From positions 1 through 48,535 of the IMG/VR virus record IMGVR_UViG_3300032290_000188: 48,535 nucleotides of DNA. One strand, written 5' to 3'. This document shows, piece after piece, positions 4,993-45,735 of this stretch. The position numbers were made by a program, and so were the translations under genes. This DNA is from a virus. Taxonomy: Duplodnaviria; Caudoviricetes. Position 1 is the first letter of the stretch, and each line of letters opens with the position of its first letter. The notes under the pieces were generated by a model. It made no database searches, was not told the DNA's origin, and worked only from the letters and a program-made list of their open reading frames with translations.

Positions 4993-5613
4993 ATGAAGAA
5001 ACGAAAACCAAAAACTGAAGAAGATGTAGAGTTGAATCCCGAAGAGATAGAGAAAGAGATTGAGGAAGAAACTCAATCTGGGCATTACATCGACAACAAG
5101 GTGTTCTATGCTGAAATGGTGAAGTGGAAGGTCGTGGTGGACGCGGAGAAGAAAGCAGAACGATCTACTCCTCCAGTAACAGACTACATTGGCAAGTGTT
5201 TCTTGGACATCGCAACGCACTTGTCGTACAGACCAAACTTCATTAACTACCCGTATCGGGAAGAGATGATAGGAGATGGCATTGAAAACTGCCTGATGTA
5301 CGCCAGCAATTTCGATCCCACCAAGTCTAAGAATCCCTTCTCGTACTTTACGCAGATCATTTACTTTGCCTTCTTACGCAGAATTGCTAAGGAGAAAAAG
5401 CAAATGTACATACGCTACAAGATGCTAGAAGCGGCAGACAAGACAGGCAAAGTCAGAAGCAACCTGCTAAATGCATCTGACTCAGATGATCCAGTTGCTG
5501 ATTACTTTCACTTGTCTCAGAATGATATCGCCAAGTTTTCAAAGTCTGATTCCCCTCGAAGAAAAGGCAAGAAAAGCAAAAAGACCAAGCGCAATCACCT
5601 TGACGATCTATGA
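4993..5613 (+). CDS. 55: Late-transcription sigma factor gp55
   Basis: HYIDNK, YIGKCFLDIATHLSYRPNFINY, EMIGDGIENC, NPFSYFTQIIYFAFLRRIAKEKKQ. Confidence 0.97.
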   Translation: MKKRKPKTEEDVELNPEEIEKEIEEETQSGHYIDNKVFYAEMVKWKVVVDAEKKAERSTPPVTDYIGKCFLDIATHLSYRPNFINYPYREEMIGDGIENCLMYASNFDPTKSKNPFSYFTQIIYFAFLRRIAKEKKQMYIRYKMLEAADKTGKVRSNLLNASDSDDPVADYFHLSQNDIAKFSKSDSPRRKGKKSKKTKRNHLDDL

Positions 5614-5627
5614 TCGTGATGTATACT
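5600..5627 (+). promoter_or_regulatory. sigma70-like promoter (TTGACG-N16-TATACT) for the gp47-gp46 operon
   Basis: -35 at 5600-5605, -10 at 5622-5627. Confidence 0.7.
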
Positions 5628-5645: not shown

Positions 5646-6704
5646 ATGAAACTAGCAATCATTAACGATACACACTTTGGCGCCAGGTCTGATTCGCCGG
5701 TATTTGGTGAGTACTTCTTCAAGTTCTTTGATGAAGTGTTCTTTCCGTACTGCGACAAGCACGGTATAGACACAGTACTTCATTTGGGTGATCTTTTGGA
5801 TCGCCGTAAGTTTGTGAACTTCCATACCTTGAATCAGGTGCGTACACGGTTCATGGAACCCTTGCTGCAAAAGGGAATGACCGTCCATTGTATTCTAGGC
5901 AATCACGATGTGTACTACAAGAACACTAATCTAGTCAACTCTCCTAAAGAACTGTTCGGAGACAGGTACACCAACTTCAACATCTACGAAGAGCCTATTG
6001 AGTTGCAGTTTGGCTCTTTGAAGATTGCTATGGTGCCTTGGATCAACAAAAACAATGGCGAAGAGTTTATGCGCTTTATCAAGCGCAGCAAGTGTCCAGT
6101 TATTTGCGGTCACTTTGAACTTGAAGGCTATCAGGTGTTGCGCGGCGTGAAGTTTGAAGGTGGTATGCACGCCAATACTCTTGCACGATACGAGATGGTG
6201 CTGTCGGGGCACTTCCACCACAAGCATAGTGGAGGCAATGTCTACTACCTGGGCACTCAGTATCAGATTACCTTCAGCGATTTGGAAGACCGTAAGGGAT
6301 TCCATGTACTAGACACCGAAACGCGGGAACTTACATTCGTGGAGAATCCCCACAAGATGTTCCACGCCGTTCGCTACGATGACACAGTACAGGATATTGC
6401 TAAGATTCTTGAAACTAAGGACTTCTCAAAGTACGCAAATGCCTTTGTAAAGGTATTCGTAGACAACAAGACCAAGCCGTATCTGTTTGATAAGTTCTTG
6501 GACGGCATCTATACTGCTCCTGCCATGGGTGTAACCATTGTGGAGCAAAACACCGATACAGGTACAGCAGAACCCGCAGCAGACATGGCACTAGACACTC
6601 TTGGACTAATCAACAAAGAGATTGACGGTATGGAAGAGGTGCATGACAAGTCTGCATTGAAGCGTATTGTGCGTGATCTGTACATGGAGAGTCTATCGCT
6701 ATGA
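5646..6704 (+). CDS. 47: Recombination nuclease gp47 (Mre11/SbcD-like)
   Basis: DTHFG, HLGDLLDRR, GNHD, SGHFH metallophosphoesterase motifs. Confidence 0.96.
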   Translation: MKLAIINDTHFGARSDSPVFGEYFFKFFDEVFFPYCDKHGIDTVLHLGDLLDRRKFVNFHTLNQVRTRFMEPLLQKGMTVHCILGNHDVYYKNTNLVNSPKELFGDRYTNFNIYEEPIELQFGSLKIAMVPWINKNNGEEFMRFIKRSKCPVICGHFELEGYQVLRGVKFEGGMHANTLARYEMVLSGHFHHKHSGGNVYYLGTQYQITFSDLEDRKGFHVLDTETRELTFVENPHKMFHAVRYDDTVQDIAKILETKDFSKYANAFVKVFVDNKTKPYLFDKFLDGIYTAPAMGVTIVEQNTDTGTAEPAADMALDTLGLINKEIDGMEEVHDKSALKRIVRDLYMESLSL

Positions 6705-8425
6705 TCGTGTTTACCAAAGTGCGATTCAAGAACTTTGGATCGTTCGGAAACAACTTCACAGAGATTCAACTGAACAAAGCCAAGATGACCCTCGTTTCGG
6801 GTAACAACGGGCACGGAAAGTCATTCGCTCTGTTGGATTCTGTGACATTTGGACTGTTTGGTAAACCATTCCGCAAGATCAATCTGCCTCAGTTGGTGAA
6901 CAGCATCAATGAGAAAGACTGCCTGGTTGAGGTAGAGTTTACCATTGCACAGGATGACTTTAAAGTTGTTCGAGGCATCAAGCCGAATCGCTTTGAGGTG
7001 TGGAAGAACGGCAATCTGCTAGATCAGCACGCCACAACTAAGGACTATCAGAAGATGCTTGAAGAGCAGATTCTGAAGATGAACTACAAGTCTTTTACCC
7101 AAGTAGTGATTCTAGGCAGTTCATCGTTTGTGCCGTTTATGCAGTTGCCTGCTTCGGATCGCCGCGCGGTAATCGAAGATATCCTTGATATCAATGTGTT
7201 CTCCACCATGAACACAATTCTCAAGGCAAAGATGTCCAATCTGAAGGAAGAGATTGCAGACAACGAACGCAAGATTGCGATTCTAAAGGAAAGCATCCGC
7301 GCTCAGAAGGAACTCATTGCAGGCTTGAAAAGCAAGAATGACGAACAGGTACATGGAAATCTGAAAGAGATTGCGCGTTCTGAAACCTTGATTGCTGAGA
7401 AGCAGGAAGAACTGGAATCTCTAACCAAGCAGATTGCCGAAGTAAAGCAGCAGTTGCAAGGAAAGGTGTCGCTGCTGAAACAGATCAGCAAACTGGAGAC
7501 ATTGCAGAAGCAGTTAGAATCCAATCGCAGAAAGGTTGGAGATGAACTTGCATTCTTCGATAACAACGAAGTTTGCCCTACTTGTCATCAGTCCATTGAC
7601 AAGGCAAGTAATCCTATCCACTCTCTGTTGTGCAAAAAGAAGAGCAAGCAGGGAGAGTTGACCGAAGCAGTTGGTGCCATTGTTGATGAGATTGATACAA
7701 AGCGTAAGCAGATTGAGGAATACGAAGTTGTGTCTTCTGAACTGGAGCGCCTAAACACCGAGACAATGGAGGCAAACTCCACTATTACGGCGTGCAACTC
7801 GTACATTTCTAAACTCACCAAAGAGAACAAGACCATCCAAAGCAAAGAGGTGGCAGACACGGATCATCAGAAGCGATTGGTTGATTTTGAAGGTGATCTG
7901 AACAAGAACGAGTCCTCCAAGCACAGTCTTGTAGAAGAGATGCACTACTATAGCGTAGCGGCAACGCTCCTCAAGGATAGTGGTATCAAGGCTAAAATCA
8001 TCAGATACTATTTGCCAATCATCAACAAGACCATCAACAAGTACTTGAACACGATGGATTTCTTCGCAAACTTTACTCTTGACGATGAGTTCAACGAAAC
8101 CATCAAGAGTAGGCATAGAGATGCTTTCTCGTACATGAGTTTCAGCGAAGGTGAAAAAATGCGTATTGATTTGGCTCTGCTGTTGGCATGGAGAGAGATT
8201 GCGCGAATCAAGAACAGCGCAAACACCAATCTGCTGATCTTGGACGAGGTGTTTGATTCTTCCCTAGATACATCAGGAACCGAAGAGTTTATGAAGATTC
8301 TGCACTCATTCGGCGCCAACTCCAATGTGTTTGTGATCTCGCACAAAGCAGACCAGTTGGTTGACAAGTTCGAGCATACCATGTCGTTCGAGAAGAAGAA
8401 CAACTTCAGTAGGATTTCGCCATGA
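6701..8425 (+). CDS. 46: Recombination ATPase gp46 (Rad50/SbcC-like)
   Basis: GNNGHGKS Walker A, CPTC zinc hook, FSEGEK signature, LILDEVFD. Confidence 0.97.
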   Translation: MIVFTKVRFKNFGSFGNNFTEIQLNKAKMTLVSGNNGHGKSFALLDSVTFGLFGKPFRKINLPQLVNSINEKDCLVEVEFTIAQDDFKVVRGIKPNRFEVWKNGNLLDQHATTKDYQKMLEEQILKMNYKSFTQVVILGSSSFVPFMQLPASDRRAVIEDILDINVFSTMNTILKAKMSNLKEEIADNERKIAILKESIRAQKELIAGLKSKNDEQVHGNLKEIARSETLIAEKQEELESLTKQIAEVKQQLQGKVSLLKQISKLETLQKQLESNRRKVGDELAFFDNNEVCPTCHQSIDKASNPIHSLLCKKKSKQGELTEAVGAIVDEIDTKRKQIEEYEVVSSELERLNTETMEANSTITACNSYISKLTKENKTIQSKEVADTDHQKRLVDFEGDLNKNESSKHSLVEEMHYYSVAATLLKDSGIKAKIIRYYLPIINKTINKYLNTMDFFANFTLDDEFNETIKSRHRDAFSYMSFSEGEKMRIDLALLLAWREIARIKNSANTNLLILDEVFDSSLDTSGTEEFMKILHSFGANSNVFVISHKADQLVDKFEHTMSFEKKNNFSRISP

Positions 8426-9087
8426 ACAAGTTTGAAGAGAACTCATATGTGCTAGGTGATGCGTTTGATTATCTGCCTAGTATTCCATCTGAATCGGTTG
8501 ACTTGGTTTTCACATCATGTCCTGATCTGTCTCAGACTCCTTTCGGAAAGGATCAAACTGACGACTACAGGCAGTTTCAGCAAAAAGCAATGCGAGAGTT
8601 TGCTCGTATTGTGAAACCTACTGGCTTTGTGGTTGTGTGTCAGACTGATCGCCGAGTCAATGGATTCATTCTGTCTAACCATATGTGGTACGCACAATGC
8701 CTCGAGAATGAAGGTCTAAGTCTCAAGGATTACAAGGTTGTGGTTCGTAACGAAGTGGGTAAGCGAGATATGTACTACTTCACTTTCCAACATATGCTTG
8801 TGTATACGAGTCAGGGAGTGATACACCGCAAGGGAGACTGGCTACGAGACATCTATGTGGATCAGCAAGAGAAAGTCTTGAATCAATCTGTGTGGTCACA
8901 GGATTTCTGCAAGTATGTGATTGAGAATCTTACAGAACCCGATGCCTTGGTGGTTGATCCGTTTGCAGGTGTTGGTCCTGTTCTGCTTGCGGCAAATACA
9001 ACTGGTAGGCGTTGGTGGGGATGTGAACTTGAAGAGAAGTTCTACGATCCGCAGTTTATGCATTGCAAGGCATCGCTTCCTGTATGA
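8422..9087 (+). CDS. DNA N6/N4-methyltransferase-fold protein (beta order) with atypical catalytic motif
   Basis: SVDLVFTSCPD in place of xDLxxTSPPY; C-terminal VVDPFAGVG SAM-binding motif; very short target-recognition region. Confidence 0.75.
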   Translation: MNKFEENSYVLGDAFDYLPSIPSESVDLVFTSCPDLSQTPFGKDQTDDYRQFQQKAMREFARIVKPTGFVVVCQTDRRVNGFILSNHMWYAQCLENEGLSLKDYKVVVRNEVGKRDMYYFTFQHMLVYTSQGVIHRKGDWLRDIYVDQQEKVLNQSVWSQDFCKYVIENLTEPDALVVDPFAGVGPVLLAANTTGRRWWGCELEEKFYDPQFMHCKASLPV

Positions 9088-10031
9088 AAGCAGAATACGA
9101 CTTCTCTACAGCATTTCCTGCCCATGTTCTTAATAGAACACCCATACAGATGTTGCAGGGGGTGTTCTACAAGCGGGACGATATGTACACTCCATACGGC
9201 CTTCACGATGTGAACGGAGGCAAGGTACGGCAAGCGATTCGTTTGCTGTATCCTATGCGCGAGGAGTTGAAATCCAAATACGCTGGCGTTATAACCCACA
9301 CGCAGGTACACTCTACCACGGGGACGATCATAGCCAGAGTGTGTAAAGACTTGGGTATTCCGTGCGTGATTTGTGTAGGTGGCAGCAGTCCCGAAACCCT
9401 AGACAACCACCACATGATGCGTTACGCAAAATGGCTAGGTGCAGATGTTCGCAATGTTTGTGGAACTGGAATGCACGGACCTGTGCTTGCTCGTATGCGC
9501 GAGATTGCAAAGGCAGAGAATCTGTTCGATTCCGTGTTTACCCACAATGTTGAGTACCGCGAGGACGCGGTAATAGATTCCATCGAAAGACAAGTAGGTA
9601 ACTTGCCTAAGGGTCTAGATCAACTGGTAATTCCAGTTGGCAGCGGAGTACATTTCGCGTCTATACTGCGCGGACTGTCCAAGTATCAAATTGATGCCAA
9701 GCGTATCATTGGGTTGTGTGTGGGCCCCAAGCGTACCGAGAACATTAACAAGTGGGTGAATCCGTTGGGAACTGGATACCATTTGCCTAAGTACGAATTG
9801 CATTGCCTAAATACTGTATACGGAAAACCACTTGTGGAAACGCTTTCTGATGGTACAATCCTTGACGATCTGTACGAAGCAAAAGCGCACAAGTGGATGC
9901 GTGAGAATCTTGATATCACCTCACACCGAACTTGCTTTTGGGTTGTTGGTAGACGATTGAGTGAAGCCGAAGTACAGAACAATATGGAAGGACAGCATGG
10001 AAACTCTGCAAGCACACAAAACATTCTTTGA
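9084..10031 (+). CDS. Fold-type II PLP-dependent enzyme (ACC deaminase/D-cysteine desulfhydrase superfamily; resembles phage DNA-hypermodification PLP enzymes)
   Basis: YKRDD...NGGKVRQ (PLP lysine), PVGSG phosphate-binding loop, LDDLYEAKA, FWVVG. Confidence 0.85.
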   Translation: MKAEYDFSTAFPAHVLNRTPIQMLQGVFYKRDDMYTPYGLHDVNGGKVRQAIRLLYPMREELKSKYAGVITHTQVHSTTGTIIARVCKDLGIPCVICVGGSSPETLDNHHMMRYAKWLGADVRNVCGTGMHGPVLARMREIAKAENLFDSVFTHNVEYREDAVIDSIERQVGNLPKGLDQLVIPVGSGVHFASILRGLSKYQIDAKRIIGLCVGPKRTENINKWVNPLGTGYHLPKYELHCLNTVYGKPLVETLSDGTILDDLYEAKAHKWMRENLDITSHRTCFWVVGRRLSEAEVQNNMEGQHGNSASTQNIL

Positions 10032-11631
10032 GAGAAACACTCATCTACTAAATCATCCAGTAAATGTAACCTTTGAGGAACTACTGGAGATGGACGAAGC
10101 CAAGTTCCGCGAATGGGTCATTGAAATGCGGAAGACCGTGGTGGATGTATGGGACGCCAAGGGTTGTCCTCCGCGCATTGGCAAATCAGAAGCAGACATC
10201 ATTGAAGAGTGGAATAAACTTGGAGAGTTTCCTGTAAAGACCTTTGAGTTTGACGATGAACTGTCTGATATCGGTAAGGATGTTGTGCTAAACAAGGCAC
10301 GACTTGGTTCCGAAGTGGATCAATGGTTTCCTACCATGATGAAGACTCGCATCAACTACAACGAAAAGGATGATGGATACTCCATCTACGAGTTGTTTGC
10401 CGAAGACAGATTCATTGATCGCATGGTAAAGGGTTCAATGCGCCATTTCCGCAGAGACTCCCTGTATATGCACGCCTTGTCTTGCTTGCGTAACAACAAG
10501 AAGCCTGCTTTGGTTTCTGTACCCGATGCAATGACTTGGATCAAGGCGTTCCAAACCAACAAGGAAATCTTCAAGGGTTACGATTTCATGCTTGAGCAAG
10601 TCAAGCAGAGAGAAGGAAACAACACAGGATACTTCCAACTGAATCAGTCGGATATCTTGAATCTCACGCGAGAGCAAGTGCAGCAACTCAAAGACGAGGG
10701 AGTGTTGCAGTACAGGCACTTCTCTACATTTGATGTGAACTCTATGCCTGATGATAAGGTGTACACCATTCGCCTTTACAAGAAGGGTGAGAGAGTATTC
10801 CCAAAGGGATTTGCTGCTTTCCGCATTGGATACATTCAGGTTGCTCACAACTTTCCGCCCATGACTGCCAAGTATTTGTACGAGCGGTTTACTGAACACG
10901 CGAAGGGACAGAAAGACCCTATCGTGATCTACGACCCGTCATCAGGATGGGGTGGTCGTATTCTAGGCGCCATGAGTGTCAAGGATGATCGACGCATTCA
11001 TTACATTGGCACCGATCCAAACCCTGATCTGTATTACATTGACGGAGACACAGGCGAAGAGCGCCCACGGTACGCGGATGTTGCTGATTTCTACAACACC
11101 AAGACCTACAGAGGCAATCCTTTCTTTAGCGAAACAAATACCTACGAAATCTTCAGATCAGGTTCTGAAGAGGTTGGTAAGAATCCTCGCTTCAAGAAGT
11201 ACAAAGGCAAGATCGACATGATCTTTACTAGTCCTCCGTATTTCAATCGTGAAGCGTATTCACAGGACGAGAATCAGTCCTACAAAAAGTACGGATCGTC
11301 TTACGAAGATTGGCGAGACAACTTTCTCCGTCCCACTTTGAAGACCTGTGCTGAGTTCTTGAAGCCTGATCGGTATTTGCTGTGGAACATTGCAGATATT
11401 CAGATCGGTGGAGACTACCTGCCATTGGAAGAAGATTCCAAGAGATTCCTTGAAGAGTTCGGATTGGAGTATAAATACAAGTTGAAGATGGCGATGGAGT
11501 CTATGCCTGGTCAAAATCGGTTGGACGAAGAAACTGGTTTGCCCATGTGTAAGAACTATTGCAAAGTGAATGGTGACTTTCTGAAGTATGAACCCGTATA
11601 TGTGTTTTACAAGCCAAAGGAGAAATCATAA
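9997..11631 (+). CDS. Large DNA amino-methyltransferase (motif I before motif IV) with extended N-terminal domain
   Basis: IYDPSSGWGGR (motif I), YIGTDPN, DMIFTSPPYFNRE (motif IV). Confidence 0.85.
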   Translation: METLQAHKTFFERNTHLLNHPVNVTFEELLEMDEAKFREWVIEMRKTVVDVWDAKGCPPRIGKSEADIIEEWNKLGEFPVKTFEFDDELSDIGKDVVLNKARLGSEVDQWFPTMMKTRINYNEKDDGYSIYELFAEDRFIDRMVKGSMRHFRRDSLYMHALSCLRNNKKPALVSVPDAMTWIKAFQTNKEIFKGYDFMLEQVKQREGNNTGYFQLNQSDILNLTREQVQQLKDEGVLQYRHFSTFDVNSMPDDKVYTIRLYKKGERVFPKGFAAFRIGYIQVAHNFPPMTAKYLYERFTEHAKGQKDPIVIYDPSSGWGGRILGAMSVKDDRRIHYIGTDPNPDLYYIDGDTGEERPRYADVADFYNTKTYRGNPFFSETNTYEIFRSGSEEVGKNPRFKKYKGKIDMIFTSPPYFNREAYSQDENQSYKKYGSSYEDWRDNFLRPTLKTCAEFLKPDRYLLWNIADIQIGGDYLPLEEDSKRFLEEFGLEYKYKLKMAMESMPGQNRLDEETGLPMCKNYCKVNGDFLKYEPVYVFYKPKEKS

Positions 11632-12797
11632 TGGGTAAGAGCGAAAAGAATGATTCGGTTGAGACTAAGCAAAACACTCCAACCGTAATGGAGTGGACTT
11701 ACATTTGGATTGCTGGCGATGGAACTATTCGTAGTTCTAGGTTTAACTCGCGCGGCGAGACCCCAACTATTCAACGCTTTGACGGGTCAGCGACAAAGCA
11801 GGCGTCTACGGATAACTCCGACCTGTTCCTCGTACCTGTGAAGACATGGGTTGAGCATACTTACATGGCATTTGATATGAATGTGGGTAGTGGAATAGTC
11901 CTGTGTGAAGTGCAGACTGCTGATGGAACGCCCCATGCGTCAAATACTCGCGCCGATCTTCGCAAGTTCTTGGACAAGAACACTAAACTTTCTACTGCAA
12001 AGATTGGCTTCGAGCAGGATATTCTTCTGATTGATCCTGAAACCCGTCAGCCGTATGCTTGGCCAAAGGGAAAGAACGAAAAGGGCGAAGAGACTGTCAT
12101 GTTCCCCGGCCCACAGGGTAGATACTACGGTGGAAGCGGAGACTTTATGCGCGGACGAAGCCTTTTTGATTCGTTCACGGAGCGTGTCTTCTATCGCGGT
12201 CCGCTCGTCAAGCAATACCATCCAGGCGTGTGCTTGTCACAATGGTCGTATACCCTTGAAGAAACTGATCTGCTTACTGCTTGTGATAACTTGATTCTGA
12301 GTAGGTATCTGCTTGAATCAAGTGCTGAAGATGTTAGCACTCCTCGTTGCGTAATCAGTTATCAGCCAAAGAGTTTCCCAGGCACCGATTGGAACGGTAG
12401 CGGATGCAACTTCCGTGTCTACTTGGAGAACTACACCAAGTCTGGCGGAAACGCTTCTCTTGCCAAGAATATCTGCGAAACTATCGGTGAAGATCACCGC
12501 GAGCATATGGCAGCATACGGTGCAGGAAACGAGCAGCGACTCGTTGGTAAGGCTGGCGGAATCAGCGATTACAACAAGTTCTCTTGGGGATTCGGAGATA
12601 GAACAGCATCTGTCTGTGTGCCAACTGTTCCTCTAAACGGAAACACATCTGACTTTACCTTTATCGAAGACCGTCGCCCAGGCGCAAATGTTGATCCGTA
12701 TGCGGGTGTTCTTGCCTTGTCTCGTAGTCTAGTTAAGGCTGTTGATCTTGTTCCGCCTGTAAAGGCTGAGGCATTTGAACCGAAACTAGTAAAGTGA
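11631..12797 (+). CDS. Glutamine synthetase type II-like protein with degenerate active site
   Basis: YIWIAG, FDGSATKQA, VLCEV, PGPQGRYY, DWNGSG, AYGAGNEQRL, EDRRPGANVDPY; several catalytic residues replaced. Confidence 0.85.
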   Translation: MGKSEKNDSVETKQNTPTVMEWTYIWIAGDGTIRSSRFNSRGETPTIQRFDGSATKQASTDNSDLFLVPVKTWVEHTYMAFDMNVGSGIVLCEVQTADGTPHASNTRADLRKFLDKNTKLSTAKIGFEQDILLIDPETRQPYAWPKGKNEKGEETVMFPGPQGRYYGGSGDFMRGRSLFDSFTERVFYRGPLVKQYHPGVCLSQWSYTLEETDLLTACDNLILSRYLLESSAEDVSTPRCVISYQPKSFPGTDWNGSGCNFRVYLENYTKSGGNASLAKNICETIGEDHREHMAAYGAGNEQRLVGKAGGISDYNKFSWGFGDRTASVCVPTVPLNGNTSDFTFIEDRRPGANVDPYAGVLALSRSLVKAVDLVPPVKAEAFEPKLVK

Positions 12798-12798
12798 C

Positions 12799-12826
12799 TT
12801 GACTCGTAGGATTATCGTCGTATACT
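12799..12826 (+). promoter_or_regulatory. sigma70-like promoter (TTGACT-N16-TATACT)
   Basis: Intergenic; ATG 12836 follows closely with no SD. Confidence 0.75.
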
Positions 12827-18882: not shown

Positions 18883-19548
18883 ATGAAGATTGACTTGCGT
18901 GATACGGAAACGCTTTGGATAAATCTAGACTCGGCAAAGAAAAACGCAGAACAGATGGTCGAGCAGTTTGATCGTCTTGGGATCAAGAATCACAAGCGTA
19001 TTTCTGCCAGAGTGATACCACCACCTGCGCTACCTCCAGTTAAACTCAGAGCATTTGGAAAGCATTTTGTAGGCTGTGGGCAGTCTCACATAGATGCTTT
19101 GTCGGCAGCAAAGGGAGTTCCATTCTTGGTGCTTGAAGACGATGCTGCTGTGACTGATAGTTTCTTTCCAGTTTTAGATGTCCCCGAAGGCACAGATGCA
19201 GTTTATCTCGGCGTTTCGCATGGAAACGCCAAGCAAGTGGTAGTGGACCAGGGAAATGGATGGATGCGTATTGGTGGTATGCTAACAACTCATGCCATTC
19301 TCTATCTGTCGGAAACATTCGCCGCCCACGCACGACAGGTGGCTAGAGAGTGCATCTATACTCGTAACCTGCCATTGGACAACGGCTTTGCTGCCTTGCA
19401 AAGGATATACAAGGTGCTTGCGTATCACAAGCCAATGTTCGTACAGTCTGATCTGCGGGAAAGTGCAAACAAGTGGGAGCGTCTTACAAGCGCACCGCTA
19501 CGAGCAACACACAAGATCGTTAACAATCAAGCGATACCTCTTACATGA
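18883..19548 (+). CDS. Glycosyltransferase, GT25-like
   Basis: WINLD, GCGQSH, LVLEDDA, DAVYLG, HAILY. Confidence 0.8.
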   Translation: MKIDLRDTETLWINLDSAKKNAEQMVEQFDRLGIKNHKRISARVIPPPALPPVKLRAFGKHFVGCGQSHIDALSAAKGVPFLVLEDDAAVTDSFFPVLDVPEGTDAVYLGVSHGNAKQVVVDQGNGWMRIGGMLTTHAILYLSETFAAHARQVARECIYTRNLPLDNGFAALQRIYKVLAYHKPMFVQSDLRESANKWERLTSAPLRATHKIVNNQAIPLT

Positions 19549-19557
19549 TGGAGAACC

Positions 19558-20073
19558 ATGAGTACTTTTGGATTTTACAAACTGCACGCAAACGCTGTCA
19601 ACCCTGCATACGGCACAGAACACTCTGCGTGTTTTGATCTTCACGCTCATCTAACCGATGAATACGGTAATCCACGAACTGTAATGCAATACAATTCTGT
19701 TGGTGAATCCCATGAGTGGAAAGCATTTGACGGAAAGATACACATTAGACCCAGTACAACTGCACTAATTCCAACTGGATTGATTGCACAAATGGAATCT
19801 GGCTGGTCACTTAGGGTGCATATGCGCTCTAGCGTTGCATTCAAGCGAGGGTTGATTTTACCGAATGGCGAAGGCATCGTGGATGCCGACTACTATCACG
19901 AACTGTTTATGATGGTTCGTAATGTCTCTCATAATGGCTTAGATATCACGCATGGTGAGAGAATCTGTCAAGGTGAGTGGGTTCCCGTGCTGCGGTTTCC
20001 AATCACCGAGATACATACAAGACCGCAGCAAACCACAGATCGTGTCGGTGGGTTTGGATCAACTGGAGCGTAA
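19558..20073 (+). CDS. dut: Trimeric dUTPase
   Basis: SACFDL, RSS, GIVDADY, GERICQ, RVGGFGSTG. Confidence 0.95.
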   Translation: MSTFGFYKLHANAVNPAYGTEHSACFDLHAHLTDEYGNPRTVMQYNSVGESHEWKAFDGKIHIRPSTTALIPTGLIAQMESGWSLRVHMRSSVAFKRGLILPNGEGIVDADYYHELFMMVRNVSHNGLDITHGERICQGEWVPVLRFPITEIHTRPQQTTDRVGGFGSTGA

Positions 20074-20077
20074 TATT

Positions 20078-20413
20078 ATGACTCGTGATGAACTATTGGC
20101 ATGGCACAAAGAAATTTGCGAATCGGGTAGACTCCTGATGGACGCAAAGAACCGCGACTACGCGGGTAACGACGGCCTTGAACCGTTCGCAAACTTTACA
20201 AGAGTAGAGTCAATGGGCATCTGTTCGACCGAACAGGGGTTCTTGGTTCGTCTTACAGACAAGATGAGTAGACTCAGTTCCTTTGTAGAGTCTGGTAAAC
20301 TTCATGTTTCTAATGAGAGTTTTATGGACACCTGTGTTGATGTCATCAACTACATGGTGCTTTTGAGCGCGTACTTGAAAGAGAAAGAGAGACTAGAAAA
20401 TGGCAAGCGATGA
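20078..20413 (+). CDS. DUF1599 / nucleotide-modification-associated domain 1 (all-alpha MazG-like) protein
   Basis: KNRDYA, PFANF, VRLTDKMSRL, ESFMDTCVDVINY pattern. Confidence 0.75.
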   Translation: MTRDELLAWHKEICESGRLLMDAKNRDYAGNDGLEPFANFTRVESMGICSTEQGFLVRLTDKMSRLSSFVESGKLHVSNESFMDTCVDVINYMVLLSAYLKEKERLENGKR

Positions 20414-21728
20414 TCGTATTTTCATTCAGATTGCAGCGTATCGTGATCCTGAACTGGTTCCAACCATTAAGGATTGCCTAGACAAAGCCAAACACCCTGA
20501 GCGCCTACGATTTGGTATCTGCTGGCAGCACGAACCAAACGATCCGTGGGATGCAGAACTGAACGAGTTCAAGAACGATCCACGGGTCAAGATCATTGAT
20601 GTTCCGTGGAATCAAAGCAAGGGAGCGTGTTGGGCACGCAATTCAATTCAAGAGCAACTGTATGACGGAGAGGAGTATACTCTTCAACTAGACTCACATC
20701 ATAGATTTGCTCAGGATTGGGACGAGACTTTGATTGGTTGGATTAAAGACTTGCAAGCAAAGGGTCATAAAAAGCCATTGCTTACTGCGTATGTAACACC
20801 ATACGATCCCGAAAAGCACAGAGGTCGTCAGCACGATTCTCTGTTGGAAACTGGTCATGCTCTGTACTTGGAGTTTGATAGATTTACTCCCGAAGGATGC
20901 GTCTTCTTCAAGCCGCACTACATTGACGGTACTCACAAGTGGGCAGGAAACGGAAAGGGCTATAAGGATTTAACCGAACCTATTCCTGCGCGGTTTTTCT
21001 CTGCTCACTTTGCGTTTACTCTAGGAAGTCATGTGCGGGAGGTTCCCCATGATCCACAGTACTACTTCCACGGTGAAGAGATTTCATTGGCAATGAGATC
21101 GTTCACTCACGGATATGATCTGTTTACACCGCATCGAAATGTTGTGTGGCACGAATACACCCGAGAGTATCGTACCCACAAGCATTGGGTAGATCATACT
21201 GACCAGAACAAACAAAAACTCGTGGACGGTCTAAATTGGGTAGATCGAAACAACATTTGTCATCATAGAAACCGTGTTCTGTTTGAAATGGAAAGTGATC
21301 CGAATATTGCATTTGGTAAGTACGGATTAGGAAGCGAAAGAACACTTGCTCAGTATGAAGAGTACGCAGGTCTTGATTTCAAAACACGAACAGAACTGCT
21401 GCCGGATAACAAGGCAAAATACGAATACCAGTTGAATTGGACATGGGAACAGTTCCATCAGGCAGATGATCTTGACTTTGTAGTTGCTGCTGTTCATAAC
21501 GATACAGATACCCTTTGGAGAGAAGACTTTACGAAGCAATCTAGACCGTATTTGTGGAATAGAGAACACAAGTCTAAGGATATTCTGAGAGAAAGTCCAA
21601 CTAGGGTTGCAATCAAGTTTGATGCGGTAAGAAACGCAAATCCAAATCGTTTAGTAATCTGGCCACATAGTATCAGCAAGGGGTGGTTAACTAGAGTAGA
21701 AATCCCACTAGGGCAGATAGGATACTGA
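20400..21728 (+). CDS. GT60-like (Skp1-hydroxyproline/polypeptide GlcNAc-transferase-like) glycosyltransferase
   Basis: IFIQIAAYRDPEL, SKGACWAR, LQLDSHHRF, SAHFAF, YFHGEEISLAMRSFTHGYD, WHEYTR. Confidence 0.88.
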   Translation: MASDDRIFIQIAAYRDPELVPTIKDCLDKAKHPERLRFGICWQHEPNDPWDAELNEFKNDPRVKIIDVPWNQSKGACWARNSIQEQLYDGEEYTLQLDSHHRFAQDWDETLIGWIKDLQAKGHKKPLLTAYVTPYDPEKHRGRQHDSLLETGHALYLEFDRFTPEGCVFFKPHYIDGTHKWAGNGKGYKDLTEPIPARFFSAHFAFTLGSHVREVPHDPQYYFHGEEISLAMRSFTHGYDLFTPHRNVVWHEYTREYRTHKHWVDHTDQNKQKLVDGLNWVDRNNICHHRNRVLFEMESDPNIAFGKYGLGSERTLAQYEEYAGLDFKTRTELLPDNKAKYEYQLNWTWEQFHQADDLDFVVAAVHNDTDTLWREDFTKQSRPYLWNREHKSKDILRESPTRVAIKFDAVRNANPNRLVIWPHSISKGWLTRVEIPLGQIGY

Positions 21729-21729
21729 A

Positions 21730-23367
21730 ATGAGTTCATTGACGGTTGTTAGTGGTCTAATCAACATTGGTAGAGGCGAGATGGGTACATCTTTCGCTCG
21801 GTCATTTGACCACTATAAGGAAACCTTTGCAAAGTTACTTAAGACCACTACGGCTCCAATGTTTCTCTACATCAGTCCTGATCTAGAAGAATTGGTTTGG
21901 CAGTATAGAGATAGGTCAAACACTTCCATAAAGTATGTTACTGCTTCTGATCTCAAAAGAATGCCATTCTACGATCAGATACAGAAGATCAGAACAGATC
22001 CTCAATGGTATAAGCAAAAAGGATGGCTAGAGGAAAGCACACAAGCGAGATTAGAGTTGTACAATCCACTTGTAATGTCTAAAATGTTCTGGTTAAACGA
22101 TGCCACTATATTCAATCCATTCAACACCAAGTACTTTCTGTGGATAGATGGAGGCATTGCGAACACCGTAAATCCAACTCTATTGGGAGAAAAGTTCGAG
22201 AAGACTGTCATCCGACACATGGAAGACTCTGCATTGTTCCTCTGTTTTCCTTACGATGCAGACGGAGAGATACACGGATTCAAAGCATCTGAGATGAACC
22301 GATATGCACATGGTTCTGTAGTTAATCGAGTTGCTAGAGGCGGATTATTTGGTGGGTCTAGGGATCAGTTGAATGCATTAAATGGACTGTACTACAAGTA
22401 TCTTAGCGATTCTCTATCAGAAGGATTGATGGGAACTGAAGAGTCCATATTCACTTTGCTAACCTATAATCACTCTGATCTATGCCATTACGAGATGATT
22501 GGTGGTAATGGACTGATAGCACCGTGGATAGAGCAAATGCTAAACAATCCTAAACCAACTGCTGCTTCTAAGTTGGGAGTGTATTCTGTATGCTTCAATC
22601 TGCCAAAGCAGTATCAGTTATGGATAGACTCTATAAATGGAGCGCATAAAGCGTTTCTCAAGAACTGCTCAAAGTATGTTGTGAATAATAGTACTGATCG
22701 CTCTACCGATGCGGAGTTCTCTGAGATGTTTAGATTCAGCAATATCTCAGAGACTCGTAAGCCTGAAAATCTTGGAATTTGCGGAGCGAGACAACTGTGC
22801 GCGGAAATGTTCGATCAATCGGATCACGAGTATATGGTATTCTTTGAAGACGATATGCTTCTGTGTGATGAGTCGTATGATGGTAAACATTGTTCAAATG
22901 GATTCAGAAGATACGATAGCAAGTTGTTTCAGAAGTGCATGAAGATCATGGAAAAGGAAAAACTCGACTATCTTAAACTGTGCTTTACTGAGTTTTACGG
23001 AGACAATCATCTAAATTGGGCATGGGTGAATCTTCCTAAAGACAAGAAGGAGTTACTATTTCCTGGTCCGCAAGTGATGGGTGCGTGTAACAAGAGCAAG
23101 ATTTATCATACTGGTTCTATTGAAGGGATACCATATGCTGTTGGTGAATTTCACTACTGTAACTGGCCTGTGATGTTTAGTAAAGAAGGAAATCGTAAAG
23201 TATTCCTAGACACAAAGTGGGCGCATCCATACGAGCAGACATGGATGAGTCATGTTCAGCAATTGGTTAGCGCAGGAACTGTTAGAACTGGATGTCTTCT
23301 AATGTCTACAATAGACCATACTCGTCAGTATCATTACAGCGGATCAGAGAGAAAAGAAAATCCATAA
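21730..23367 (+). CDS. HtrL/YibB (WlaTC)-like domain fused to a GT-A glycosyltransferase domain
   Basis: TVVSGLINIGR, NPFNTKYFLWIDGG, GGLFGG, GTEESIF; C-half has VVNNS, NLGICGAR, FFEDDM. Confidence 0.75.
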   Translation: MSSLTVVSGLINIGRGEMGTSFARSFDHYKETFAKLLKTTTAPMFLYISPDLEELVWQYRDRSNTSIKYVTASDLKRMPFYDQIQKIRTDPQWYKQKGWLEESTQARLELYNPLVMSKMFWLNDATIFNPFNTKYFLWIDGGIANTVNPTLLGEKFEKTVIRHMEDSALFLCFPYDADGEIHGFKASEMNRYAHGSVVNRVARGGLFGGSRDQLNALNGLYYKYLSDSLSEGLMGTEESIFTLLTYNHSDLCHYEMIGGNGLIAPWIEQMLNNPKPTAASKLGVYSVCFNLPKQYQLWIDSINGAHKAFLKNCSKYVVNNSTDRSTDAEFSEMFRFSNISETRKPENLGICGARQLCAEMFDQSDHEYMVFFEDDMLLCDESYDGKHCSNGFRRYDSKLFQKCMKIMEKEKLDYLKLCFTEFYGDNHLNWAWVNLPKDKKELLFPGPQVMGACNKSKIYHTGSIEGIPYAVGEFHYCNWPVMFSKEGNRKVFLDTKWAHPYEQTWMSHVQQLVSAGTVRTGCLLMSTIDHTRQYHYSGSERKENP

Positions 23368-23376
23368 AGGAGAACC

Positions 23377-24015
23377 ATGAATCTAGAGAAATACACTATC
23401 GTAGGACCTAGGCTAAACGACAATCAGGGACTGTTGACTATAAACGGTCATGCTGCACAGCAGAATCAGTATGCCCCGCTGGCGTTTGCAAAATTGTTGG
23501 AGTCGATTAGACCAAAACGAATATTGGAAATAGGAACCGCATTGGGAGGCCTAACACAATTCTTTAGAGAGATATCTCAAGAAATAGACCTCCCTCTTGA
23601 TATTGTCACATACGACATTCACCGACATCCGTGGTTTGATGATTTGCAGACCAACGGGATTGCAGACTTTAGAACCAAGTCGATATGGGAGAATGATGTA
23701 CTAGAAAAAGGTATATGTCAAGAGTCTATTGATTTCATCAAGCAAGAAGGAACTACTGTTGTATTGTGTGACGGTGGTTCTAAGAAACATGAGTTTGCTA
23801 GTGCTGCAAAACATTTGAAGCCTGGAGATATCATACTTGCACACGATTATGCTCCCAACAAAGATGTATTTGATGCACAGATAGATCATAAATTGTGGAA
23901 CTGGTGTGAGATTACTGATGATGATATCTCCGAAACCTGTATTACGCAGAATCTTGTTTCTTTCATGCACGAAGAGTTTTCAAATGCTGTGTGGGTTTGT
24001 AAGAGAAAGAGTTGA
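23377..24015 (+). CDS. Class I SAM-dependent methyltransferase (CmcI/Methyltransf_24-like)
   Basis: ILEIGTALGG, TYDI, LCDGG, LKPGDIILAHD. Confidence 0.8.
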   Translation: MNLEKYTIVGPRLNDNQGLLTINGHAAQQNQYAPLAFAKLLESIRPKRILEIGTALGGLTQFFREISQEIDLPLDIVTYDIHRHPWFDDLQTNGIADFRTKSIWENDVLEKGICQESIDFIKQEGTTVVLCDGGSKKHEFASAAKHLKPGDIILAHDYAPNKDVFDAQIDHKLWNWCEITDDDISETCITQNLVSFMHEEFSNAVWVCKRKS

Positions 24016-24017
24016 TT

Positions 24018-24788
24018 ATGCCTGTGCCTACATACGCGTACTGTACTGTTGCCATAGGTAAATCGTATCTCTCGTCCGCTTTGTTGTTTCATACTAGTGT
24101 TTCTGACTACCCCAATCACAAGCGTTCTGTGATAACGACGGATGAAAAATCACTAGAAGGTGTAGACTTAGATAAGGTCAGTCCGAAAATACACTTTGAC
24201 ATCATTGAATCTGATTACAAGGTGTTCAATATGCCAGTTGGGTATTACGCGGATCAGTTTAACTACAATGTTAAGCATCGACCAATCTTAAAAAGTCATC
24301 AACTATGTAATGATGCAGATTTCATCATATTCGTTGATGCAGATTGGGAAGTTACTCACCATTACAGCGAGAGCGGAGTTCTTTCCATATTGGAAATGAT
24401 GAAGACTAAGAGTATAGACTTTCTCTATGAAAGACCGCACAGTATTGGTGCGGGAAAACAACCAAACGCATCAGGTGGTTGTTTTTGGAAGCACAAGATA
24501 CAAGCATATGGGTTAATGGAAACCGATAGATATGATGCTGCTGATGTGTGCAATGAACAGTACATGATTTTTGCAAACAACGATAAGTTGTCTATATTCT
24601 CGGCAAACTGGATGAACCTGTTCAATAAAAGTCAAGTAGAGAACATATGGTCATTTGCAGAGGGTGTTGAGATAGGAATGTCTGCGGTGGTTGCAGATAT
24701 GAAAACTTCTCTGATACCCCATATGGTTATGAACGATTACTACCTCTTTAAAGCCAGACATACTGGTGACATATACAGAAAGTTTTGA
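24018..24788 (+). CDS. Putative GT-A glycosyltransferase
   Basis: CTVAIGKSY start, FNYNVK, IIFVDAD DxD motif; island context. Confidence 0.65.
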   Translation: MPVPTYAYCTVAIGKSYLSSALLFHTSVSDYPNHKRSVITTDEKSLEGVDLDKVSPKIHFDIIESDYKVFNMPVGYYADQFNYNVKHRPILKSHQLCNDADFIIFVDADWEVTHHYSESGVLSILEMMKTKSIDFLYERPHSIGAGKQPNASGGCFWKHKIQAYGLMETDRYDAADVCNEQYMIFANNDKLSIFSANWMNLFNKSQVENIWSFAEGVEIGMSAVVADMKTSLIPHMVMNDYYLFKARHTGDIYRKF

Positions 24789-24790
24789 AC

Positions 24791-25549
24791 ATGAGTTTGC
24801 TCATCACTACAGTTTTGTTCGATTATCCATCCGCCTATGAACCTAGTTTTTGCAAAACTGGTATTGAGAGAGGAATATCTCAAACTGATATCCATGTTCA
24901 ACGCTACACTAGCGATGGTTTTCCTCCACCATGCTCGTGGTCAAGTAATGTCTATGAGTCTCTTATGTCTAAACTTCGATGGTATAAGATACACAAGCAT
25001 CTAGAGTACCTGACTGAAATACAATCGAAATACGAGTACACTCTGTTTTTAGATGCAACCGACACTAACTTTACCAAGAATGTAGATGGGATACTTGATG
25101 AGTATTTGAAATACGGACATGACATTGTGATGTGTGCAGAAAAAGGATTGTGGCCACCTACACCATACAATCATCTGTACGAAACTACAGGAGTATCTAC
25201 TCCATACAAATACTTGAATTCGGGATGCATGATAGGAAAAACAACTGCAATCATCTCTGCATTACAGTATGCGGTTAATTCTGCCGATCCCAATGTTTCC
25301 TTCTCTGGCGACGATCAAGGTATTTGGGCAACTCTGTATTTGCTTAAGAAAGCAGACATAGTGCTTGATACTGAGCAGAGATTATTCTTCAGCACCCATC
25401 TATCTAAAGACAAGACTGTTCTAGATCAAACGGGGAATCCAATTGGTATAGATACCTCCGCATATATCATACACGACAATGGTCCGTGGGGAGAAGAAAC
25501 AATCAAACTTACAGAAGTCTGCAATATCAGGCAGTTGGAGACACGATGA
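24791..25549 (+). CDS. PLOD (lysyl hydroxylase GT domain)-like glycosyltransferase
   Basis: LFLDATD, MCAEKGLWP, YKYLNSGCMIG, DDQG, LDTEQRLF, IHDNG. Confidence 0.8.
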   Translation: MSLLITTVLFDYPSAYEPSFCKTGIERGISQTDIHVQRYTSDGFPPPCSWSSNVYESLMSKLRWYKIHKHLEYLTEIQSKYEYTLFLDATDTNFTKNVDGILDEYLKYGHDIVMCAEKGLWPPTPYNHLYETTGVSTPYKYLNSGCMIGKTTAIISALQYAVNSADPNVSFSGDDQGIWATLYLLKKADIVLDTEQRLFFSTHLSKDKTVLDQTGNPIGIDTSAYIIHDNGPWGEETIKLTEVCNIRQLETR

Positions 25550-26562
25550 GAACTATTAGAATTACTAGGCAAGGATTTTCTAGAACTGGAATGTGTTTCT
25601 TCGTGTCATACTTGGAAAGATGTCTTGGTATGAACTACAATATCGTTGTTGATGACGATAATCCAGACATTGTAATTTGGTCAAATCTATCATTCGACAA
25701 TCAGCCTGATGTTTGGATAAGTAAGAAAACAGGAGTACCGACTCCGCAGAGAAGTAGAGTTCCCATAGATCATCCAAACCTCAAGTTTCTATGTGTTAGT
25801 GGAGAACTTATGGATTGGGAGTCTTCCATTTCTCTTCCAAATAAATGGGCAATAGGATATGCTCCAATAAGTCATCCGAGATATCTTCAACAGGCATCTG
25901 CTGCTTTTGATATTTGGGGAATTTACGACGAGATGATGCTTACCGACAATCCAACAGATTGGTTATTCGGAAGAGACTACTCCACGATCTTACAAAGAAA
26001 CATACGATTTTGTTCTGTTGTTCAAAACTCTAGTCCACCGCATAGAGTAACTGCGTGTGCTGAGTTGGATAAGTACAAAACGGTGGATGGTGCTGGTATA
26101 TTCAGGAATAACAGGACAGATAGCGGAGTAAATAGAGATGGAGAACAAGCAATCTATGCTGGTAGAGCAGAAGGTATAGGATATAGACAAAAACTCTTGT
26201 TCCAATCCAACTACAAGTTTTCTATAGCCATGCAATTGTGTTGCGAACCGTATTGTGTGCAAGAAAAACTACCTCAAGCATTCTTTTCTGGAAACATTCC
26301 GATATTTTGGGGAAATCCACGGATACTGGAGTTTGGTTGGAATCCAAATGCTTTCATAAATCTCCATACCTACGAAAGTGTTGTTGGAGACTATAGAACG
26401 ATTGATTGGGATGCTGTTAGAGATAGAATCAGACTCATTGATACCGATGAGTCTGTAAGAAAGCAGATGATAGAAGAACCTATCTTTGTTGGGAACAAAT
26501 TGCCAGAGCAGTTAAGAATGTCGAGAACTGCTGAATTCTTACGCAAAATGGTGGAGGCTTGA
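25546..26562 (+). CDS. GT10-like (alpha-1,3/4-fucosyltransferase family) glycosyltransferase, divergent
   Basis: NPDIVI, FCSVVQN, YKTVDGAG, YKFSIA...EKLPQAF..GNIPIFWG, NPNAFIN. Confidence 0.78.
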   Translation: MRTIRITRQGFSRTGMCFFVSYLERCLGMNYNIVVDDDNPDIVIWSNLSFDNQPDVWISKKTGVPTPQRSRVPIDHPNLKFLCVSGELMDWESSISLPNKWAIGYAPISHPRYLQQASAAFDIWGIYDEMMLTDNPTDWLFGRDYSTILQRNIRFCSVVQNSSPPHRVTACAELDKYKTVDGAGIFRNNRTDSGVNRDGEQAIYAGRAEGIGYRQKLLFQSNYKFSIAMQLCCEPYCVQEKLPQAFFSGNIPIFWGNPRILEFGWNPNAFINLHTYESVVGDYRTIDWDAVRDRIRLIDTDESVRKQMIEEPIFVGNKLPEQLRMSRTAEFLRKMVEA

Positions 26563-26566
26563 TAAT

Positions 26567-27562
26567 ATGAAGCGAGTTATCATAACAGGCGGTGTTGGAT
26601 TTTTGGGGCATCACATGGTTGATTATCTGTTGTCAACTACAGATGCCGAAATAGTCATATTGGACAGGTTGGATTCTTCAGGAAACATCAACCGTCTAAC
26701 TGAACTTGATTCATGGAAAGACAACGCGAATAGAGTCAACTTTGTCTGGCATGATATGCGAGCAGAAATACATTCCAATGTAGTGCTATGCTCAATGCTT
26801 GGAAAAGCAGATACTATCCTTCATATAGGTGCAGGTTCTCATGTGGATAGAAGCATAGAAGACCCTTTATCTTTTGTCATGGATAATGTAGTTGGAACTT
26901 GCAATATTTTGAACTTTGCAAGACGACAAGACTCTTTGGAAAACTTTGTGTACTTCTCTACAGATGAAGTTTTTGGTCCTGCACCTAATGGTGTTGATTA
27001 CTTGGAATGGTCTAGATATAACTCTGGAAATCCCTACGCTGCAACTAAGGCTGGTGGAGAAGAGTTGTGTTTAGCCTTTCATAACACTTATAAGATGCCG
27101 ATGAAGATTTCTCATTGCATGAATATCTTTGGAGAGAGGCAACATCCAGAAAAGTTCATACCCCTTGTTATCAAAAAAGTACTACTTGGAGAAAGAGTAC
27201 TCATTCATTCTGACAAGACAAAAACTCGCGCTGGAAGTAGATTCTATATCCATGCAAAGAATGTGTGTTCTGCTGTTGATTTCATCCTTCAACGGGGAGA
27301 GAATGGAGATAAGTACAATATTGTCGGAGAGAAAGAAATTGACAATCTTTCTTTGGCAAATACAATTGCCTCTATTCTTGGAAAACCTTTGAATTACGAA
27401 CTGGTAGATTTTCATAGCAGCAGGCCTGGACATGATCTTCGATATGCGTTGGATGGATCGAAAATGAGAGATATGGGGTGGAATTTGCCAATGAACTTGG
27501 AGAAGTCTTTAGAGAGTGTTATCTCTTGGTCATTGAATAATCCAAAGTGGATGGGAATGTAG
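26567..27562 (+). CDS. NDP-glucose 4,6-dehydratase (RmlB-like extended SDR)
   Basis: TGGVGFLG, SHVDRSI, STDEVFG, YAATK, QHPEKFIP, RPGHDLRYALD. Confidence 0.92.
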   Translation: MKRVIITGGVGFLGHHMVDYLLSTTDAEIVILDRLDSSGNINRLTELDSWKDNANRVNFVWHDMRAEIHSNVVLCSMLGKADTILHIGAGSHVDRSIEDPLSFVMDNVVGTCNILNFARRQDSLENFVYFSTDEVFGPAPNGVDYLEWSRYNSGNPYAATKAGGEELCLAFHNTYKMPMKISHCMNIFGERQHPEKFIPLVIKKVLLGERVLIHSDKTKTRAGSRFYIHAKNVCSAVDFILQRGENGDKYNIVGEKEIDNLSLANTIASILGKPLNYELVDFHSSRPGHDLRYALDGSKMRDMGWNLPMNLEKSLESVISWSLNNPKWMGM

Positions 27563-27571
27563 AAGAAACCT

Positions 27572-38182: not shown

Positions 38183-38230
38183 CGGAACTCTGTAAGCGCA
38201 TACCTATAACACAAACTAATGGAGACACGC

Positions 38231-45734: not shown

Positions 45735-45735
45735 A

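Follow-up and report, generated by a model that had tools for sequence, protein, structure and literature searches.

What does a fold-type II pyridoxal phosphate (PLP) enzyme, related to the decarboxylases of phage thymidine hypermodification, do beside two methyltransferase-fold proteins in a phage that encodes ThyX? The question is raised by a 48,535-nucleotide stretch of viral DNA (IMG/VR record IMGVR_UViG_3300032290_000188; hereafter the window), a fragment of a T4-like phage with genes for gp23, UvsW, gp55, gp47/46, gp45/44/62, RegA, PolB, gp41, ThyX and a class II ribonucleotide reductase. Four long + strand open reading frames (ORFs), A, B, C and D, each overlap their predecessor, and A overlaps the stop codon of gp46; the ORF positions bear out the description, in an earlier note on this DNA, of four genes joined to the end of gp47-gp46. 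That note took the four for a DNA hypermodification cassette. As judged from gene order and fusions in related viruses, A, B and C do form a real module, though one of three genes rather than four, since D, degenerate in this clade, comes and goes independently of the other three. Some kind of amino-acid-type DNA hypermodification by this module seems to us reasonably probable; DNA as the substrate, the chemical group, the base that receives it and the sequence of the steps are all inferred.

Gene B and the canonical partners

B matches PF00291 (E 7e-12) and two PHROG families, phrog_3650 (E 4e-33) and phrog_7093 (E 1e-07), which hold the protein of the ViI-like phage SFP10 and gp52 of phage M6, phrog_3650 being the family of the SFP10 enzyme (E 3e-210). 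The start motif given in the earlier note was found again as KRDD...NGGKVRQ; K47 (GGKVRQ) aligns with K36 of M6 gp52, the proposed PLP lysine, and KxRQ is common to B and the ViI-type enzyme. The suggested relationship of B to the thymidine-hypermodification decarboxylases thus stands on both the family scores and the lysine alignment. A tblastn search with B matched 347 phage records, 160 of them from Salmonella phages; as a single sequence, B had no match in the PDB. The M6 and ViI prototypes (gp52 and gp226, respectively) have been shown to decarboxylate amino acids attached to thymine in DNA (PMC8989533). B is accordingly predicted, from its sequence, to be a PLP enzyme of these DNA-adduct decarboxylase families acting on a DNA-bound amino acid, and because both prototypes decarboxylate DNA-bound amino acids, it would need an amino-acid adduct.

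B might serve the canonical 5-hydroxymethyluracil (5-hmU) pathway, with the 5-hmU DNA kinase (HMUDK) and the amino acid:DNA transferase (ADDT) lying outside the 48-kb fragment, an arrangement that would suit a fragmentary window and resemble the ViI-type phages, which keep these genes far apart. As the earlier note had said, the window itself lacks both partners: the ADDT and HMUDK Pfam families had no match among its 54 proteins. Thymidylate synthase-type PF00303, looked for as the sign of a dUMP hydroxymethylase (5-hmU precursor route), likewise had no match in a search covering these 54 proteins only, and ThyX, dUTPase and dCMP deaminase are all encoded in the window. Partners elsewhere in the genome were a possibility that the earlier note had named as damaging to its proposal, and none turned up in related contigs. 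The transferase family PF18724 and the kinase families PF18748 and PF18723 were over the cut-off in none of 18 related IMG/VR contigs (37-179 kb; 17 fragments that are 16-75% complete, and the complete G011), and the controls M6 and SFP10 passed all three. The presence of ThyX and these negative searches with working positive controls make the canonical pathway highly improbable here. A weak ADDT match in contig G007 (18 bits, 4 stops) was taken as chance, and the PF18746 profile had a match nowhere, so that this search had no working control.

G011 (178,609 bp, terminal repeats, 100% complete) encodes ThyX and a B that overlaps the C orthologue, and has no A, no ADDT and no 5-hmU kinase. Its gene order is gp46, peptide deformylase, a GNAT-like/hydroxylase fusion, an inserted restriction-modification-like block and B overlapping C; a weak match of the A profile was rejected as an A gene, being a DPPY methylase. 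Two small methylase pieces of the NPPF type and a helicase-methylase-like protein of 1176 aa are inserted in this genome between the hydroxylase fusion and B (L295:5875-10395). In G007 (70% complete), C occupies the slot at gp46, B lies 66 kb away and A is absent. The same contig (L220-L224) carries a porin, a RimK-like ATP-grasp protein and purine genes: adenylosuccinate synthetase, inosine monophosphate dehydrogenase/GMP reductase and, between gp47 and gp46, a PurB-like ORF. The complete genome of the cultured Mycobacterium phage Vincenzo combines a ParB-CPPY methylase, a PLP gene and a P-loop kinase (PF18751), with no ADDT and no A. The 'terminase small subunit' annotations of Vincenzo gp4 (L068:2559-3152) and M6 gp54 (L127:11686-12249) belong to P-loop kinases (PF18751 and PF18748, respectively).

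Genes A and C

A matches PF01555 (E 3e-16). The top Foldseek matches of its AlphaFold model (predicted local distance difference test score, pLDDT, 86.5) are beta-class N4-cytosine methyltransferases (8s9m, E 8e-17; PvuII, 1boo, E 4e-14), and by this model A is a circularly permuted (beta-class) amino-methyltransferase fold with SAM (S-adenosylmethionine)-binding motif I. Motif I reads DPFAG at 179, and QTDRR stands at 74. The strand-4 catalytic motif (motif IV) of N4-cytosine/N6-adenine amino-methyltransferases is [DNSH]PP[YFW], the aromatic residue of which stacks on the target base (PMC4738411, Box 1). In A, motif IV is instead S32-C-P-D35, without the base-stacking aromatic; P34 and D35 are invariant in all 19 aligned homologues, and hardly any space is left for a target-recognition domain. 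A is thus predicted from its motifs to be a tailoring enzyme.

The motifs of A agree with the consensus published for group I clade 2, the SLPD clade (ShPD, QoD, HK, DsFCG), with members in Dictyostelium (DICPUDRAFT_50950), myxobacteria and halovirus HCTV-2 (gp12), for which the supplement offers N4-cytosine methylation of RNA as a guess, without a test (Iyer et al., 2016; PMC4738411). Among 1.8 billion representatives, the A profile gave 29 matches at E <= 1e-30 and a wider xPD/TDRK family beyond these. One member of the wider family finds HCTV-2 gp12 at E 6e-26, while A's own profile finds it weakly (E 2e-04), and membership of A in the clade is likely rather than proven. The gene of HCTV-2 gp12 comes after a ParB-methylase gene, near the terminase. 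Among the cultured phages of the collection, A, C and D had no close relative, and a search of viral contigs with the ParB-linked A of locus L120 returned only that protein itself.

C also matches PF01555 (E 2e-07) and is an unpermuted Rossmann amino-methyltransferase with motif I DPSSGWGGR (313), an intact motif IV TSPPY (411; TSPPYF) and a 280-aa N-terminal region. The fold search with its model (pLDDT 85.3) gave generic class I methyltransferases only, the best being the tRNA methylase Trm11 (E 9e-07). C matches phrog_12517 (E 2e-12), to which the ParB-fused methylases of Vincenzo and HCTV-2 also belong. Its shorter C-type relatives (330-440 aa) have F-x-P-x-x-A, D-x-S-x-G-[WYF]-G-[GD]-R and FTSPPY..E.Y in common. 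Of 118 C-type proteins, 94 carry motif I as well as the SPPY motif, and the other 24 fail one or both regular-expression matches. In one close relative with intact A, B and D (L006:8906-10539; contig shared with L055 and L076), C is split into two ORFs of 288 and 263 aa, by an assembly error or a true break.

Gene neighbourhoods, fusions and phylogeny

Loci were collected with the A profile in viral contigs (71 loci), in metagenomes (the best 80 of 135) and in GTDB (3 loci, on phage-like contigs in metagenome-assembled genomes), and with the B profile (the best 80 of 98). For the tallies, loci were clustered at 90% identity and clusters with less than 3 kb on either side were dropped (28 of 61 for B and 24 of 43 for A), leaving 33 for B and 19 for A. 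Within 3 kb of B were found a C-type gene in 27 clusters, A in 22, a GNAT-like/hydroxylase fusion in 12 and D in 10; by combination, these were A and C in 15, A, C and hydroxylase in six, C and hydroxylase in five, C only in one, A and hydroxylase in one, and none in five. Within 3 kb of A were found a C-type gene in 17, B in 16, the hydroxylase in nine, D in five and none in one. The linkage of the genes, on which the proposal in the earlier note depended, is therefore conserved, and gene fusions back it. The part of that proposal in which methyltransferase-fold proteins take the place of the canonical partners holds for them as neighbours of B, but not for the 'atypical' A as a requirement, since six of the 33 B clusters, one of them in a complete genome, have C nearby and no A.

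In the first B search, A stood one or two genes from B in 37 of 37 loci, in either order. A reading of A plus B as the whole module, with C as an ordinary methylase, was dropped when the wider B search gave loci with B and C and no A, and a complete genome without A. C accompanies B where A is missing, A where B is missing, or both, and also occurs alone. Loci of an A variant with the motif VPD[LM]ND keep the hydroxylase and have no B, a siphovirus-like locus has the order ParB, A, C-type, ParB, C5 methylase and terminase, and three metagenome contigs of 156-211 kb carry the module. An A gene that has the usual PPDISQ motif lies by itself among genes of the structural region at L109:8910-9572 and in L140, where 13-14 kb contain neither B nor a C-type gene.

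In a tree of 37 B-type proteins, all A-linked ones fall in one starred clade (20 rows, support 95/87) and those with C without A in a separate clade (6 rows, 100/100), B-C pairs occurring both inside and outside the A-linked clade. The root is a midpoint root only, and the proteins of Vincenzo and the ViI-like phages attach through long branches with unstarred support. Four fusions were found. In P0390, a domain with 43% identity to A (motif TSPPG) is combined with a PLP domain that belongs to the M6 gp52 family (E 9e-27) and not to B's own branch. P0299 unites a C-type with an A-type domain, P0373 an A-like domain with the hydroxylase fusion, and P0302 has ParB-like, A-like and C-like parts. 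The GNAT-like/hydroxylase fusion protein itself carries PF05118 of the Asp-Arg-hydroxylase type at its C-terminus (E 1e-12 to 1e-17); at its N-terminus, the resemblance to GNAT is only a lead (Atlas scores 0.83-0.87). We infer that this protein, an addition in other modules, is the type of enzyme that tailors amines and chains.

Proposed scenario and its alternatives

Considering these results, we propose the following scenario, in its full order a tentative one that may well be wrong in part. The adduct needed by B may come from SAM, whose aminocarboxypropyl (acp) arm is an amino acid; SAM is put forward as the donor because no ADDT was found and the constant neighbours of B offer no other donor. 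C would move acp from SAM to a DNA base, a first step that C fits because it is found with B, with A, with both or alone and keeps the base-binding SPPY. The Ser in motif IV of C may point to N4 of cytosine as the site, such a Ser indicating cytosine N4 as an established tendency and not as a rule. B would then decarboxylate the DNA-bound acp. A may finally act on the aliphatic amine so formed, which it fits because Asp replaces the base-stacking aromatic and A never proved necessary for B, and the GNAT-like/hydroxylase fusion would fit the same chain. C is thus predicted, from its motifs and neighbourhoods, to be the base-modifying transferase and the hub of the module. Of the idea in the earlier note that a SAM-dependent methyltransferase-fold protein acts as the transferase, the absence of canonical partners and the conserved methyltransferase-fold neighbours speak in favour, and acp transfer itself is put forward here as a proposal. 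By analogy with other phage hypermodifications, the purpose would likely be protection from host nucleases.

The roles of A and C could be exchanged within the same kind of pathway: A would be the acp transferase, B would decarboxylate its product and C would be a conventional methylase priming or accompanying the site. A departs from the methyl-transfer motif and C does not, A and B abut in most of the loci they share, in either order, one fusion protein pairs an A-family domain with a PLP domain of the M6 gp52 type, and in one case the 3 kb to either side of A contain neither B nor C. However, the complete G011, the six-row B clade and Vincenzo have B with a C-type gene and no A, and A has hardly any recognition domain and lacks the aromatic residue by which a flipped base is held. 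Since B does not require A, we take C for the likelier transferase and regard transfer by A as unlikely.

B could also act on SAM itself, the decarboxylated SAM then serving a methyltransferase-fold enzyme that transfers aminopropyl directly, a route (route b) considered for MccE/MccD and described as still possible for microcin C (PMC10491745). In the genomes G007 and G012, B lies at a distance from its partners, as an enzyme making a diffusible cofactor could; however, ViI-type genomes likewise keep the PLP gene far from the transferase, the characterised relatives of B act on DNA-bound adducts, and modules without B exist (A, C and hydroxylase). Such a route appears quite improbable.

Several observations weigh against the scenario with C as the acp transferase. 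B is only 22% identical to M6 gp52 in direct alignment. By motif, C resembles an ordinary N4-cytosine/N6-adenine methylase, and acp transfer is proven by no sequence feature. A and B are both missing from the vicinity of C in six of the seven full-context clusters that the C search gave, and a 123-kb, 68%-complete contig (G006) has C and neither of the other two. This phage group has many C-type genes (4 of 18 contigs carry two copies), so that more co-occurrence is expected by chance, and weak C-like matches were found in cultured Staphylococcus and Bacteroides phages, neither genus being among the listed matches of A or B. The tallies of 33 and 19 clusters come from loci that were fetched with A, B and C queries and are related to one another, and they represent neither a random sample nor independent events, and five of the 33 B clusters have no partner within 3 kb. 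Moreover, the single A-PLP fusion and the tight coupling of A and B suit A as the direct partner of B equally well.

The module might make no hypermodified base: C would be an orphan methylase producing N4-methylcytosine or N6-methyladenine, A an altered or inactive subunit (METTL14-like) or an RNA or small-molecule methylase, and B an enzyme of a free metabolite (1-aminocyclopropane-1-carboxylate (ACC), D-cysteine or a SAM drain). The canonical motifs of C and its frequent occurrence alone would fit this, as would the guess of RNA methylation for the SLPD clade in the supplement of Iyer et al. (2016) and the weak match to Trm11 as the best structural match of C. The solved structures nearest to B are ACC deaminases (E 8e-11); these carry GNKLRK where B has GGKVRQ, that is, KxRQ like the ViI-type enzymes and not KxRK. 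B scored far under the cut-offs of the ACC deaminase and D-cysteine desulfhydrase families (24 bits against 550 and 29 against 289, respectively). Unrelated functions would also hardly explain why A, B, C-type and hydroxylase genes are repeatedly adjacent, reordered and fused in unrelated viruses, where some of them lie beside ParB and terminase. We consider the absence of hypermodification an unlikely explanation.

If C acts as proposed, the reading may extend to the widespread C-type phage 'DNA methylases' as a whole, which would be DNA acp transferases seeding a combinatorial set of amino-acid-derived bases on cytosine or adenine, edited by the PLP decarboxylase, the SxPD amine alkylase and the GNAT-hydroxylase fusion; this generalisation is more speculative than the scenario for the module. 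Were it true, a wybutosine-like assembly line on DNA, annotated so far as plain methylation, would be abundant in aquatic T4-like phages.

Relation to known systems

The closest parallel is thymidine hypermodification in M6 (5-NedU) and ViI (5-NeOmdU), which, as described, has like B a fold-type II PLP enzyme of the same PHROG families, with the PLP lysine and KxR(Q) motif, and follows a similar post-replicative logic in which an amino acid hung on DNA is decarboxylated (PMC8989533). The present module differs in occurring with ThyX and without a 5-hmU route, HMUDK or ADDT, its partners being amino-methyltransferase-fold proteins, and for these reasons its base and donor must differ from those of M6 and ViI. 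The characterised amino-acid DNA hypermodifications that we found all start from 5-hmU; entry through SAM and an amino-methyltransferase-fold enzyme would, if true, be a new chemistry.

A shares with the SLPD methylases the permuted fold, the S-x-P-D strand-4 motif, Q-T/S-D after strand 5, a conserved H/Y-K strand and DPF.G (Iyer et al., 2016; PMC4738411 supplement). It differs in belonging to a distant phage subfamily, and we found no PLP or hydroxylase partner in that supplement. C resembles the methylases of ParB-terminase loci (group I clade 6, CPPY; Vincenzo gp1 and HCTV-2 gp11) in being unpermuted, in the Arg after the glycine loop, in [SC]PPY..xE and in having PLP or SxPD genes as neighbours, and differs in lacking a ParB domain, in having SPPYF and a long N-terminal region, and in lying among replication genes of a T4-like phage. 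The chemistry proposed here is that of microcin C, in which MccD and MccE are described as a methyltransferase-fold acp transferase and a PLP decarboxylase that yield an aminopropyl group (PMC10491745). There, however, the acceptor is a small-molecule phosphate, and the likeness is one of chemistry, with no homology to A, B or C claimed.

An article by Iyer and colleagues of 2013 reportedly put forward a chemistry of SAM derivatives in phages and may refer to neighbourhoods of this kind. Our literature search, which did not reach that article (Iyer et al., 2013, NAR) or bioRxiv supplements, found no description of methylase-plus-PLP DNA modification. If the chemistry holds, the module would be a variant of phage DNA hypermodification in which the SxPD partner A and C as the hub are new here. 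Two unassigned methylase clades, SxPD and C-type, would then gain a function, many annotated phage DNA methylases would do something else, and enzymes placing amine handles on DNA would become available.

Dictyostelium has an SLPD-clade protein, DDB_G0285285, and an orphan discadenine synthase activity, by which an adenine derivative receives acp from SAM (PMC4738411 supplement; PMC7316887; PMC9618038). The SLPD-clade protein would be a candidate for this synthase if SxPD enzymes transfer acp; against this, the clade also occurs in dictyostelids thought not to make discadenine, and no paper naming the gene was found.

Gene D

D shows weak glutamine synthetase domains, a match to NF041605 GlnII (166 bits against a cut-off of 500) and full-length homology to plant glutamine synthetase (E 9e-44). 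D130, G199, S206, N260 and C329 stand where E, E, E, H and R are expected, positions that we take to be metal, glutamate and ATP ligands of GlnII; in the alignment, GIEQEY has become GFEQDI, NGEV..QWEF HPGV..QWSY, GAHTN GCNFR, HETAD GGISD and RGASVR RTASVC, and EDRR is kept. Among 11 aligned D orthologues, seven retain the active-site residues and four, the window's clade, have lost most of them. With five to six active-site residues replaced in this clade, D is probably a decayed auxiliary gene, a passenger. A role as an amidoligase on a DNA adduct was not favoured, the catalytic set being eroded rather than re-specified. Only the window's wider clade has D at 3 kb or less from B (10 of 33); D is absent from every distant module, comes after C in phages without A or B nearby and lies far from C in G007. 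A phage GlnII-like gene is fused to an N-terminal CxxC thioredoxin-like region in L050 (9600-11093), L052 and L054, and D homologues at 31% identity occur in huge phages of 635-735 kb.

Transcription unit

Only two sites in the window, one before gp47 and one after D, fit the strict pattern TTGAC-N16-18-TATA[CA]T (Table 1). In a loose sigma-70 scan, which gave 11 sites against 10.5 expected, the site at 12799 alone was no better than chance; the strict pattern, however, also stands immediately 3' of D in all five close relatives (13 loci checked), and the closing promoter proposed in the earlier note is upheld, as a prediction, on that ground. In the more distant relatives L013 and L015, the strict pattern lies between B and C instead. 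As predicted from these patterns, gp47-gp46-A-B-C-D is one transcript here and, across the group, not a fixed unit. A longer TTG start of B at 9063, suggested earlier, was judged unlikely.

Table 1 Genes and predicted promoters of the gp47-gp46-A-B-C-D region of the window
Feature	Position	Strand	Basis
Predicted sigma-70-type promoter TTGACG-16-TATACT, opens gp47-gp46-A-B-C-D	5600..5627	+	Strict pattern; same before gp47 in 5 close relatives
gp47 recombination nuclease gene	5646-6704	+	PHROG matches of gp47/gp46: phrog_100, phrog_77
gp46 recombination nuclease gene	6701-8425	+	PHROG matches of gp47/gp46: phrog_100, phrog_77
Gene A, 221 aa	8422-9087	+	ATG overlaps gp46 stop (ATGA); PF01555
Gene B, 315 aa	9084-10031	+	ATGA overlap with A; PF00291
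Gene C, 544 aa	9997-11631	+	ATG after GGAAGGA; 35-nt overlap with B; PF01555
Gene D, 388 aa	11631-12797	+	TAATG overlap with C; GlnII-like
Predicted sigma-70-type promoter TTGACT-16-TATACT for next gene, marks unit end	12799..12826	+	Strict pattern

Other features of the window

No tRNA genes were found in the window. A third, separate N6/N4 methylase-family gene (31742-33001; PF01555, E 6e-29) overlaps the end of the DNA polymerase gene, and in several relatives the slot after the polymerase holds a C-type gene. A destabilase/SLT-like lysozyme gene (28808-29209) lies just before the polymerase, a weak Nmad1/DUF1599 match (19952-20410; E 0.007) lies beside dUTPase, and the class II ribonucleotide reductase, which is B12-dependent, is encoded at 38219-40168. 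Two clusters (18883-28758 and 45045-47176) hold glycosyltransferases, an epimerase and small methyltransferases, with no TET/JBP match, and the GC content of the first is 0.39-0.42 against about 0.46.

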